Shown piece after piece: positions 41,730-44,114 of a DNA stretch of 64,000 nucleotides; the first letter of the stretch is position 1; each line of letters begins with the position of its first letter. Position numbers and translations under genes: made by a program. The notes beneath the pieces were generated by a model. The model was not told the DNA's origin and did not search any database. It saw only the letters and a list, made by a program, of their open reading frames with translations. This DNA comes from Chloroflexota bacterium (GTDB lineage: Bacteria; Chloroflexota; Limnocylindria; QHBO01), in NCBI GenBank assembly GCA_038040195.1, contig JBBPIR010000001.1, positions 489,141-553,140 of the forward strand, in the 5' to 3' direction.

Positions 41730-44114
41730 ATGACCTTCGCAGGCAACGGCAACGGGAAAGGCAACAGCAGCATGGTGGGGCCCTTCGAGGACTACGCCCC
41801 CATCTGGCCGGTGGTGCCCGGCACGCGCAAGATTACGGTCACGATCAATGGCCGCCAGGTCCAGGCCGAGGAGGGCCAGACCATCCTCCAGGCCTGTCGG
41901 GTGCTTGGGCTCGAGATCCCCACCCTGTGCTACGAGCCCAAGCTGTCCCCGTACGGTGCCTGCCGGATCTGCGTGGTCGAGGTGGACGGCCAGGACAACA
42001 CGCCCATCTCGTGCGGGACCGACCTCGCCGAGGGGATGGTCATAACCACCCACTCGGAGCGGGTCATCGAGAACCGCCGCCTGGTGCTGGAGCTGATCTT
42101 CTCGGACCACGACGCGTACTGCCTGCCGCCCTGCCAGTTCAAGTGCCCCACCCGGGTCGACATCCCCGGCTACCTGAAAGCCAACGCGGAGGGCAACTGG
42201 GAAGAGGCGACCCGCATCCTGAAGCGCTCGCTCCCCTTCCCGGCCATCCTGGGTCGGGTGTGCCCCGCCCCCTGCGAGACCCACTGCCGGCGCGAAGAGG
42301 TGGACACCGCCATCGCCATCCGCGACTCGCATCGGTACTGCGCCGACCGGGTCCTGGAGGTGGACGCGCCGGCCCCGCTGCCGTGGCCCAAGGAATCGGA
42401 CACCGGGCGCCGGGTGGCGATCGTCGGTTCAGGGCCCGCCGGCATGACGGTGGCCTACTACCTCCAGCTGCGCGGGCATCACTGCGACGTGTTCGAGGCC
42501 GATCCCGAGCAGGGGGGAATGCTCCGCTACGGGATTCCCGAGTACCGCCTGCCCAACGGCTGGATGGACCGCGAGCTGAACCACGTCTGGGAGCTGGGCG
42601 CCACCTTCAAGCCGAACATGCGCCTGGGCCGCGACTTCCACCTGGCCGATCTGGTGGAGCAGGGCTACGACGCCATCTTCGTGGGCATCGGCTGCTACAA
42701 GCCCAACGAGATGGGGATTCCCGGCGAGGACGCCGACGGGACCGTCAACGCGCTGGAGAACCTGTACAACAGCACCCGCGGCATCCCGGTTCCCGCCCTG
42801 AAGGGGGCCAGCGTGGTGGTCATCGGCGGCGGCTTCACGGCCATCGACTGCACCCGGACCTCCCTCCGCCAGGGCGCAGCCGAGGTCAACCTGGTGTACC
42901 GCCGTGACCTGAAGGACATGCCAGCGCAGGACGAGGTCCACGAGGCCGCCGAGGAAGGCGCCAAGGTCACCTTCCAGGCCGCGCCGGTCCGCATCGTGAC
43001 CGATGCCAAGGGCAAGGTGACCGGGGTCGAGTTCCAGAAGATGCACCTGGGCGAGGCCGATGAGAAGGGCCGGCGCCGGCCGGAGCCCATGCCCGGCACC
43101 GAATTCATCATCGAGTGCGACACGGTCCTGGGTGCCATCGGCCAGGGGCCGGAGCTGGCGTGGATCGACTCCGAGCCCGATGAGATCCGCTCCGGGCTGG
43201 AGGTCAGCCGCCAGGGGCGTCTGGTGGCCGATGCGAACACGTTCCGCACAGGCATCCCCAAGATCTTCGCCGCCGGCGACGTGAACCTGGGGGCCACCAC
43301 CGTGGTGGAGGCCATCGGCGACGGTCGGCGGGCGTCGTATGCCATGGACTACTGGCTCCGCGGCCACGACCTGGACGACCCGCAGGTGCGGCGCATGGTG
43401 TCCGAGCCGCAGCCCTCGTTCCTGACCATCGTGCCCTTCACCGACGACGTGAAGGAGCCCCAGGCGGTGATGGGCAAGCTGGGCGCTGAGGAACGGCGCA
43501 CGAACTTCGAAGAGTACGAGCACGGCTACACCCACGACCAGGCCATGGGCGAGGCCGCCCGCTGCCTGCAGTGCACGTGCGAGGCGATTGGCCACTGCGA
43601 CCTGCGCGAGGCGGCCATCGAGTACGAGACCACCCTGAACATGACGATCGACGAGCGGTCGATCCAGGACAACCCGTATGTCGGCATCAACCACGGCTAC
43701 GGCCGGGACGAGACCCACTCGTTCATCCTGCGCGATTACTCGCGCTGCATCGATTGCGGCCGATGCGCCCAGGTGTGCAAGGACATCGTGGGCGCCGGGT
43801 GCTACGACTTCATCGGAAAGGGCTTCGACTCGCTGGTTACGACCGCCGATTACGTCTCGTTGAACGAAACGCCGTGCGTGTCATGCGGGCGGTGCGCGGA
43901 GACGTGCCCGGTGGGGGCGCTCATGCCGCGGCCGCGGATCCTGGAGACGTACCAGCTCGACGTGAGCCGCTGCATCTTCTGCGGCATCTGCGCCGACGCC
44001 TGCCCCTACGACGCGCTCCGCTGCGGCCCGGAGTTTGAGTTCAGCGAGTACCAGCGCGACCTGCCCATGCTCGACATCCTCGAGATGTCCGACCGGGAGC
44101 GCCCCACCCGCTAG
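41730..44114 (+). CDS. Multidomain Fe-S flavoprotein: NuoG-type 2Fe-2S domain + GltD-like FAD/NAD(P)H oxidoreductase + ferredoxin motifs + C-terminal half of NuoI
   Basis: 794 aa, with the ATG at 41730. Motifs are [19 protein letters not shown]...SCGT; [10 protein letters not shown] and [72 protein letters not shown]; and [16 protein letters not shown]. The protein ends with [32 protein letters not shown]. No molybdopterin-like domain is present. Confidence 0.8.
   Translation: [794 protein letters not shown]

Follow-up and report, generated by a model that had tools for sequence, protein, structure and literature searches.

A Bfu/Nfn-derived three-gene cassette within nuoI of a Limnocylindria complex I operon

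Complex I, as known from Escherichia coli (Nuo) and Thermus thermophilus (Nqo1-14), is usually taken to be strictly NADH-linked and, to our knowledge, NADPH normally enters respiration only via transhydrogenases. Relatives of complex I with other inputs exist, among them Fpo (FpoF and F420H2), cyanobacterial NDH-1 (ferredoxin) and Campylobacter Nuo (flavodoxin), and E. coli complex I has reportedly been engineered to use NADPH through NuoF E183 variants, a change at the flavin mononucleotide (FMN) site and not a second flavin. None of these is known to employ a flavoprotein of GltD type for NADPH or to have its NuoI split. Here we describe a nuo operon with a split NuoI and a GltD-type flavoprotein that is predicted to use NADPH, in which, as in Fpo, NDH-1 and Campylobacter Nuo, a conserved proton-pumping core is combined with an exchanged or altered input module. 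It lies in a stretch of 64,000 nucleotides (hereafter, the window) from a Chloroflexota bacterium of the class Limnocylindria (QHBO01; assembly GCA_038040195.1, contig JBBPIR010000001.1, positions 489,141-553,140, forward strand), and among its products is a NuoG-like protein of 794 residues.

The best solved relatives of the three input proteins encoded there are the NfnABC/StnABC enzymes, which are soluble, reduce ferredoxin and NAD+, and have been characterised (PMC10482914, PMC12018979, PMC11829005). The structure of StnC was solved with bound NADPH (PMC10482914), and in StnC/NfnA the cluster proximal to the flavin is ligated by a lysine (PMC10482914, PMC12018979). Electrons in Stn follow the route FAD-C7-C6-C5-... 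from flavin adenine dinucleotide (FAD), and the four-Cys 2Fe-2S cluster of BfuC/StnA is required for bifurcation. Assemblies with such modules, namely the membrane-bound Nuo-Bfu (Geobacter, Planctomycetes, Nitrospirae) and Mbh-Bfu (Dehalococcoides) and also Por-Bfu, were predicted from genomes by Schut et al. 2022 (PMC9304861). In the passages of that paper on which we draw, BfuABC-type genes lie amid a complex-I-like or Mbh-like cluster as its input module, as they do here, and an unexplained extra flavin site is reported for Mbh-Bfu.

A cassette of Nfn/Stn descent inside nuoI

The operon of the window runs on the forward strand in the order A-B-C-D-H-[I_N::E]-F-[G::I_C]-J-K-L-M-N (Table 1), where I_N and I_C denote the N- and C-terminal halves of NuoI. 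Since the N-half precedes the E-like protein and the C-half ends the 794-aa protein, the whole E-F-G cassette lies inside nuoI, and we conclude with high confidence that the operon carries a Bfu/Nfn-derived three-gene cassette within that gene. An earlier note on this DNA had placed the 794-aa protein in the NuoG position. Its gene does follow NuoE- and NuoF-like genes, but the E-F-G block stands after nuoH, at the place of nuoI, and not between nuoD and nuoH, so that the protein is one part of an inserted cassette instead of a free-standing chimera in the place of NuoG. The note had also taken the surroundings for a genuine membrane nuo operon, and in this it was right: by their predicted subunits, both the membrane arm (NuoA, H, J, K, L, M and N) and the Q-module are canonical.

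Domains were assigned with Pfam and NCBIfam profiles, solved relatives were identified by comparison with chains of the PDB, and residue conservation was counted in 57 sequences of the 794-aa protein and 81 of the 282-aa protein that carries the NuoI N-half. Every motif that the earlier note had quoted is present in the 794-aa protein, and the NuoG-type 2Fe-2S domain that it had put at residues ~30-105 was recovered by Pfam, with all four cysteines invariant (57/57). The segment that follows, which the note had read as GltD-like, matches Fer4_20 (residues 132-210, E 2.3e-20) and the two-Rossmann flavoprotein domain Pyr_redox_2 (residues 228-532, E 6.7e-27). Taken alone (residues 132-560), this segment ranks with the NfnA/StnC/NfnB/NfnL/GltD proteins, scoring 365 bits against Caldicellulosiruptor saccharolyticus (Csac) NfnA, 341 against Thermococcus sibiricus (Tsi) NfnA, 298 against Sporomusa ovata (Sov) StnC and 294 against Tma NfnB of NfnSL, followed by Pfu NfnL (262), GltD (245) and DPD (122). 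The Fe-S ligands assigned to it are H127, C131, C135, C139, K165, C178, C182 and C186; residues 233-238 form the Rossmann motif for FAD (GSGPAG), and that for NAD(P)H (GGGFTA) is accompanied by Y390-R391-R392. In the alignments of relatives the Fe-S ligands and the FAD and NAD(P)H motifs are all conserved; down to 58% identity there is no variation at K165, which is the counterpart of StnC K170, the lysine ligand of the flavin-proximal cluster, in the R266 loop or in either Rossmann motif, the Y390-R391-R392 of the second included.

Beyond the flavoprotein module, the C612-C623 motif aligns with its counterpart in the PDB chains 9bov_A, 8oh5_C and 9n5u_A and is kept in 56-57 of the 57 sequences. 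The ferredoxin-like motifs A and B that come next are conserved and colinear with both motifs of Csac NfnA, and Fer4-type domains together span residues 666-764. A molybdopterin-oxidoreductase domain, the C-terminal ~450 residues whose absence from this protein the earlier note had recorded, was found neither by Pfam nor in the PDB alignments, and the chain ends at residue 794. Its top solved relatives are the Bfu-type NfnABC/StnABC large subunits, of 1172-1178 aa, which rank ahead of NuoG and GltD: 9bov_A, identified as Csac NfnA through PMC11829005 (E 5.7e-169), Sov StnC 8oh5_C (E 1.8e-147) and Tsi NfnA 9n5u_A (E 2.2e-139). Residues 33-758 are colinear with all three, and the alignments stop at about residue 700 of these homologues, where their FdhF-like domain starts.

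The two partners tell the same story of descent. The F-like protein, whose start codon overlaps the upstream stop codon by 1 nt, scores 381 bits against the Nfn/Stn B subunits vs 266 against canonical NuoF, and its match to the 584-aa B subunits 9bov_B and 8oh5_B (E ~1e-112) is limited to their core, residues 107-525. In the PDB alignment it has no counterpart of two domains of Bfu proteins, the thioredoxin-like 2Fe-2S domain at the N-terminus and the 2x4Fe-4S domain at the C-terminus that binds ferredoxin, and the lengths in its family are 447-460 aa. The E-like domain of the 282-aa protein, recognised as NuoE-type and thioredoxin-like over residues 125-263, has Csac NfnC (9bov_C) as its closest solved relative. 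Thus the large, F-like and E-like proteins are each closest to Nfn/Stn subunits, from which we derive the descent of the cassette.

That NuoI is divided between two proteins follows from both of its halves. The NuoI profile TIGR01971 (NCBIfam, 121 positions) is matched over its positions 1-72 by residues 11-83 of the 282-aa protein and over 71-112 by residues 736-777 of the 794-aa protein. Likewise, NuoI/TYKY chains of the PDB match the 282-aa protein over residues 7-92 only, and their second halves, including the GPxFEF segment, match the tail of the 794-aa protein. Joined in silico, the halves give a single colinear NuoI/TYKY match over residues 8-130 (E 4e-23), covering NuoI of plants, mammals, Thermus and Mycobacterium, compared with E values of only ~1e-9 to 1e-12 for each half taken separately. 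The two proteins together therefore have the full set of eight NuoI cysteines and the flanks specific to NuoI; C55, C58, C61 and C65 of the 282-aa protein are invariant (81/81), and the tail of the 794-aa protein is almost invariant in relatives of 58-60% identity. Neither the window nor any of the related loci searched has an intact nuoI in the stretch from nuoH to nuoJ. The earlier note had seen the C-terminal cysteine motifs of the 794-aa protein, and they are there; it had not recognised the last one (C748-C758, then GPEFEF) as the C-half of NuoI.

The number of motifs points in the same direction. Three CxxCxxCxxxC(P) motifs occur in the 794-aa protein (A, 673-683; B, 716-726; C, 748-758) and one in the 282-aa protein (55-65). 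As A and B pair in cis in the solved homologues, motif C would need the motif of its 282-aa partner. In the two-cluster fold of clostridial-type ferredoxins, one motif supplies three of the cysteines for each 4Fe-4S cluster and the other motif the fourth. With this 3+1 ligation, clusters N6a and N6b could arise nowhere but where the two proteins meet. In all likelihood, then, N6a/N6b would be rebuilt from NuoI halves on two proteins. Two other origins of these features were considered and set aside. An assembly error or pseudogene is ruled out by the match of the split in 160 species genomes, with identical order in the 80 loci retrieved, all cysteines being conserved except in a few frameshifted assemblies. 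The last cysteine motif is no remnant of an FdhF-type cluster, being a ferredoxin-type CxxCxxCxxxCP with NuoI flanks.

Set beside the known systems, the locus shares much with each and differs from all, known or predicted: (i) With NfnABC/StnABC (9bov, 8oh5, 9n5u) the large subunit shares its order (2Fe-2S domain, GltD insert with Lys-ligated proximal cluster, two-cluster ferredoxin-like domain) and its FAD and NADPH motifs. However, the cassette lies in a nuo operon, half of NuoI stands in for the FdhF-like domain, the B subunit has lost its 2Fe-2S domain at the N-terminus and its 2x4Fe-4S domain at the C-terminus, and the counterpart of the C subunit carries the other NuoI half together with a degenerate cluster site. 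(ii) With canonical complex I the operon shares the full membrane arm, the Q-module, the eight NuoI cysteines with their flanks, and input subunits of E/F/G type with an FMN loop and an N1b-type cluster. In canonical complex I, by contrast, NuoI is one polypeptide and the gene order differs, NuoG has a molybdopterin-like domain where we find none and a GltD flavoprotein insert instead, and N3 and N1a have four cysteines each, as against a three-Cys N3 and a degenerate N1a here. (iii) GltD proper is a stand-alone protein of ~450-480 aa with GltB as partner, whereas here the homology is at the level of a domain embedded in the 794-aa protein. (iv) Nuo-Bfu and Mbh-Bfu, as the passages of PMC9304861 cited above present them, are put forward as bifurcating complexes that have a full BfuB and use ferredoxin together with NADH, unlike the truncated F-like subunit here. 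The combination of a truncated, non-bifurcating B subunit, an Nfn-type GltD large subunit encoded among nuo genes, a lost FdhF-like domain and a split NuoI sets this architecture apart. Neither a GltD-type NuoG nor a split NuoI nor Limnocylindria is mentioned in the searched passages of PMC9304861, a text in which the name NuoI does not occur, and our literature searches (Limnocylindria complex I, fusions, Bfu/NADPH links), of incomplete coverage, returned no published description of this architecture. The earlier note had spoken of a new input chemistry for a nuo operon, which stands out less in view of the Nuo-Bfu and Mbh-Bfu predictions found in parts of PMC9304861.

Proposed electron routes and competing readings

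We think it rather probable that these genes encode a non-bifurcating, proton-pumping NAD(P)H:quinone oxidoreductase, with entry of NADPH at the GltD flavin and, probably, of NADH at the FMN. A soluble Bfu-type NfnABC/StnABC transhydrogenase would have supplied the three genes (NuoE/NfnC-, NuoF/NfnB- and NfnA/StnC-like) now found in nuoI. On meeting, the NuoI halves would rebuild NuoI, with N6a/N6b, on NuoH/NuoB, and would tether the input module (E-like plus G-like) covalently, replacing the anchoring provided by the missing C-terminal domain of NuoG. NADPH would reduce the FAD of the GltD-type module and, with the Stn route as template, electrons would pass through two 4Fe-4S clusters to the NuoG-like chain; NADH would probably reduce the FMN of the F-like subunit, and from there a three-Cys cluster and a 2Fe-2S cluster would lead to the common chain. 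Both routes would join in the NuoG-like Fe-S chain and continue through N6a/N6b and N2 to quinone, driving proton pumping. Two clusters could pass electrons on to N6a, either the His-ligated one, which does so in canonical complex I, or the second of the ferredoxin-like domain, a dead end in Stn; the latter is favoured by the spacing of only ~8 residues between that domain and the NuoI C-half. Since one chain would carry two nucleotide sites, NADPH:NAD+ transhydrogenation without coupling would be possible too. We regard bifurcating coupling of NADH, NADPH and ferredoxin as unlikely since the ferredoxin branch, that is, the B2-B5 domains of the F-like subunit, is lost; non-bifurcating is used here for the absence of clusters B2-B5, following the relevant passages of PMC9304861.

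From the sequence we infer cofactor occupancy, nucleotide specificity and the wiring of the chain to N6a. NADPH is the presumed substrate at the GltD-type site, its nearest solved relatives all being NADPH users and the YRR motif and the lysine cluster ligand being kept. At the F-like subunit the FMN loop GRGGxG[FYW]P, the GEETAL motif and the Zn-hinge H423/C429/C434 are kept. Sites with three cysteines, such as those of succinate dehydrogenase and NiFe hydrogenases, commonly hold a 3Fe-4S cluster, and by this analogy a 3Fe-4S cluster would occupy N3.

Several observations weigh against the scheme as proposed: (i) The N3 motif, readable in 75 of 81 loci (no match in the other 6), is E-x-C-G-K-[A/T]-x-P-C in all 75, leaving a three-Cys site, C353-x2-Ala/Thr-x2-C359...C399. 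(ii) The FMN-site motif NADE is replaced by NLMG, and NNVET appears as HNGET or QNAET. (iii) In the E-like 2Fe-2S site C193, C195 and C198 are invariant in the 81 sequences, but the third canonical cysteine is D, E, N, S or Q (in most cases Asp or Glu), Gly taking the fourth place in 79/81, so that the N1a site looks degenerate. With these three sets of changes the FMN site may be altered and may have a different function or none. (iv) The GltD family includes NADH-using members, and the NADPH call is made from homology and one motif. (v) Residues 713-772 of the 794-aa protein can likewise be aligned with TYKY residues 45-111, which would allow motifs B and C to pair in cis. (vi) AlphaFold2 gave unusable models of the C-terminal Fe-S region and of the joined NuoI: residues 592-794 of the 794-aa protein had a predicted local distance difference test score (pLDDT) of ~25-30, with the 2Fe-2S and flavin domains confident (58-sequence alignment), and the joined NuoI halves, modelled from a single sequence, a mean pLDDT of 35.7. 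(vii) All members of the family come from metagenome-assembled genomes. As to covariation, the segments of the two NuoI halves are too uniform for it, with 12 sequences left after de-duplication at 93%.

The changes at the F-like and E-like sites invite the reading that NADPH is the only donor, entering at the GltD flavin, and that both subunits are a docking or assembly scaffold in which the FMN/N3/N1a branch carries no electrons. In its favour, a three-Cys N3 is found in all Limnocylindria loci read and has arisen twice independently, by change of the second Cys to Ala/Thr in Limnocylindria and of the third to Gly (C-x2-C-x2-G) in the loci L084/L086; in L083, L085 and L088 the N3 motif is canonical. 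The acidic NADE motif is replaced in both lineages (NLMG, NAYG or NAFG), and the NuoE-like site is without two canonical cysteines. Against this, GRGGxG[FYW]P, GEETAL, the three N3 cysteines and the Zn-hinge H/C/C are conserved in Limnocylindria and mostly also in lineages of 26-46% identity, and such conservation is unexpected for a dead site; a three-Cys site, moreover, may well bind a 3Fe-4S cluster. We consider this reading unlikely. [quoted passage not shown]

The remaining alternatives concern direction, ferredoxin and the pairing of NuoI. Complex I is reversible, and the earlier note had raised the option of a reverse reaction that makes NADPH. As the main direction, this would have the proton motive force drive quinol electrons to the GltD flavin to make NADPH, possibly NADH, for biosynthesis or CO2 fixation, which would merge the roles of complex I and of an energy-linked transhydrogenase. 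A gene for the large chain of RuBisCO adjoining that for phosphoribulokinase within the window would suit such a demand, but the sequence carries no sign of direction and the idea is compatible with an NADPH- and NADH-oxidising complex; as the main direction it is unlikely. For NuoI, the core could form in cis from the last two cysteine motifs of the 794-aa protein, with the 282-aa motif a remnant or paired elsewhere, as the TYKY alignment just mentioned and a match of NCBIfam NF004536 to residues 714-777 would allow. This we find improbable: the solved homologues show motif B paired with A, no partner would be left for motif A or for the four invariant cysteines of the 282-aa protein, the N-terminal 50 residues specific to NuoI sit on the 282-aa protein, and the arrangement of one plus three motifs recurs in L085, L090 and L088. 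Least credible of all is a bifurcating or confurcating Nuo-Bfu complex oxidising NAD(P)H together with reduced ferredoxin: the cassette is of Bfu descent, Nuo-Bfu complexes are already predicted in the passages of PMC9304861 referred to above, and the F subunit of L083 retains the Bfu-type N-terminal 2Fe-2S domain, yet the F-like subunit has neither of the Bfu-specific domains (clusters B2-B5 and the ferredoxin site), and the site of the C/E-like 2Fe-2S cluster, which Stn requires in order to bifurcate, is degenerate. We therefore retain the non-bifurcating NAD(P)H:quinone oxidoreductase as the preferred reading.

Distribution in Limnocylindria and deeper lineages

The architecture is not confined to one genome. 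In a species-level collection 160 genomes matched, and gene order, read in 80 retrieved loci, nearly all from Limnocylindria, was A-B-(C)-D-H-[I_N::E]-F-[G::I_C]-(0.1-5 kb variable genes)-J-K-L-M-N in 80/80. Proteins of the 794-aa type fall into more than 100 clusters of 794-890 aa, with no molybdopterin domain among the 120 best matches, and a protein search found 548 proteins of the 282-aa type; the named relatives of both are labelled Chloroflexota or Candidatus Limnocylindria. Five operon contigs of 76-96% identity (L004, L016, L038, L046 and L081) are filed as Pleomorphomonadaceae, Steroidobacteraceae or Zixibacteria metagenome-assembled genomes, labels that are likely due to mis-binning. 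Among the relatives P0012-P0120 of the 794-aa protein, a clade at ~60% identity carries, past the NuoI C-half, an extra C-terminal tail of 70-90 residues that is absent from the clade of the window, with a conserved TE..Y.R.ERDWL.RA..GR...LLP.LP followed by a His/Gly-rich end.

A distant clade of Limnocylindria keeps the order with no insert, its E-like protein being 39% and its large subunit 59% identical, and a search of 1.8 billion cluster representatives returned further NuoI_N::NuoE fusions at 26-38% identity. Among these deeper loci, L086/L090 (GC 59%) have the identical architecture, with a large subunit of 799 aa (46% identical) that ends in the NuoI C-half. L085 (1321-6023) is built differently: nuoH and I_N::E are followed by a 1048-aa F::GltD fusion, in which the GltD module sits at the C-terminus of a Bfu-type NuoF, then by a short 265-aa NuoG::I_C with a canonical N5 motif, and by nuoJ-N. 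The NuoI C-half is thus carried by the L090 protein and by the short NuoG of L085 alike. In L083, nuoA-D and nuoH precede I_N::E and then the F subunit with its Bfu-type N-terminal domain. In L088 (1804-7726) and L089 nuo genes are absent nearby and genes for 2-oxoacid:ferredoxin oxidoreductase adjoin. These Por-Bfu-type clusters, soluble relatives of the cassette, share with our locus the half-ferredoxin motif at the start of the E-like subunit and the third cysteine motif on the StnC-like subunit; unlike it, they have a full Bfu-type F subunit (634 aa) and, by eye, a region resembling the beta subunit of 2-oxoacid oxidoreductases past that third motif.

Since the split-ferredoxin motifs recur in differently built loci, L088/L089 included, the half-ferredoxin pair seems to behave as a reusable adapter, also outside complex I. 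A wider picture, in which a proton-pumping complex I joins the NADPH and quinone pools reversibly, respiring NADPH in one direction and making it at the expense of the proton motive force in the other, balances NADH against NADPH through the FMN and a 3Fe-4S-type cluster at N3, and assembles by a novel principle, a split-NuoI docking adapter that is reused on a 2-oxoacid oxidoreductase, is tentative, and we regard it as rather unlikely.

Surrounding genes and significance

The coordinates of the operon, of the parts of the cassette and of other genes of the window are given in Table 1. The N2 cysteines of NuoB are readable as CCxxE (CCAIEM), C and CPP (GCPP). NuoD, read by sequence, has GPQHPSTHG and MDY and is without the CxxC motifs of NiFe enzymes, so it is no hydrogenase large subunit. 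A scan of the operon found no promoter-like sites, and its terminator-like matches were weak (8 vs 4.0 ± 2.1 in shuffles).

Table 1. Positions of the operon, cassette parts and neighbouring genes within the window
Feature	Position	Strand	Basis and remarks
Sarcosine/dimethylglycine-dehydrogenase-like protein	986-3424	+	DAO and GCV_T domains
Phosphoribulokinase	5810-6805	-	324 bits vs cut-off 236
RuBisCO large chain	6806-8173	-	NCBIfam PRK04208, 560 bits vs cut-off 438; type III model just below cut-off
Succinate dehydrogenase / fumarate reductase / TfrA-like flavoprotein	10852-12654	+	
nuoA	35650..36009	+	119-aa open reading frame; counterparts in related loci carry Pfam Oxidored_q4
nuoB (cluster N2 subunit)	36000..36629	+	Pfam Oxidored_q6, E 1.6e-28
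nuoC	36569..37204	+	start uncertain; frame 36359-37204, nearest in-frame start GTG 36569; counterpart in L001 carries Complex1_30kDa
nuoD (quinone-site subunit)	37201..38484	+	Pfam Complex1_49kDa, E 9.6e-85
nuoH	38494..39513	+	Pfam NADHdh, E 1.8e-110
282-aa protein, I_N::E	39525-40373	+	
NuoI N-half	39525..39782	+	residues 1-86 of the 282-aa protein; leader and first CxxCxxCxxxCP (C55, C58, C61, C65)
NuoE/NfnC-like thioredoxin-like domain	39870..40319	+	residues ~116-265 of the 282-aa protein; Pfam 2Fe-2S_thioredx, E 8.3e-25
NuoF-like FMN subunit, 448 aa	40373..41719	+	Pfam Complex1_51K, SLBB, NADH_4Fe-4S
NfnA/StnC-like 'NuoG' fused to NuoI C-half, 794 aa	41730..44114	+	open frame, 794 codons and stop
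N1b-type 2Fe-2S domain	41826..42056	+	residues 33-109, C67/C78/C81/C95; Pfam Fer2_4, E 1.5e-21
GltD/NfnA-type module	42108..43409	+	residues ~127-560; Pfam Fer4_20 and Pyr_redox_2
C612-x2-C615-x-C617-x5-C623 motif	43563..43598	+	GltD / N5-like region; completes its Fe-S set
HydA/NuoG-type ferredoxin-like domain	43725..43922	+	motifs A (C673-C683) and B (C716-C726); Pfam Fer4_Nqo3 and Fer4_21
NuoI C-half	43932..44111	+	residues 735-794 of the 794-aa protein; RxxxxYxLDxxxC, CxxCxxCxxxCP (C748-C758), GPEFEF
PAS-domain gene	44156-44560	+	Pfam; between cassette and nuoJ
Metallo-beta-lactamase-fold gene	44557-45402	+	Pfam; between cassette and nuoJ
nuoJ	45433-45975	+	Pfam Oxidored_q3
nuoK	45979-46287	+	open reading frame; family of L001 counterpart Oxidored_q2
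nuoL	46355-48529	+	open reading frame; L001 counterpart Proton_antipo_M
nuoM	48510-50057	+	open reading frame; L001 counterpart Proton_antipo_M
nuoN	50065-51516	+	open reading frame; L001 counterpart Proton_antipo_M

The gap between the large subunit and nuoJ is a hotspot of unrelated genes (44156-45402 in the window; L015 14656-19104; L020 14751-16175; L021 15347-16393; L061 14878-16092), and by insertions ahead of nuoJ the nuo cluster is often in two blocks. The PAS and metallo-beta-lactamase-fold genes found there in the window are probably outside the complex; this insert is confined to the clade of the window, and other genomes have different genes (a HAD hydrolase, a metallophosphoesterase, an NmrA-like NAD(P)-binding protein or, on the opposite strand, a transporter of the major facilitator superfamily) or nothing, the gap measuring only ~80-100 nt in L044, L075 and L077. 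Elsewhere in the window, the adjoining RuBisCO and phosphoribulokinase genes suggest a capacity for Calvin-type CO2 fixation in this Limnocylindria genome, and the DAO/GCV_T protein and the TfrA-like flavoprotein could be extra feeders of the respiratory chain.

If the preferred reading of the cassette is correct, its significance would reach beyond this operon. It would show, in living bacteria, a soluble bifurcating enzyme that has shed its ferredoxin branch and become wired to a proton pump. The split of NuoI suggests that two polypeptides can share a two-cluster ferredoxin fold as a docking device, which may account for the loss of the large C-terminal domain of NuoG, and the three-Cys N3, recurring by different substitutions, leads to a specific cofactor prediction, a 3Fe-4S cluster next to the FMN. 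Candidatus Limnocylindria, widespread in soil and freshwater, may then respire NADPH as well as NADH, and a built-in NADPH flavoprotein would change the redox-balance models of this abundant uncultured class.

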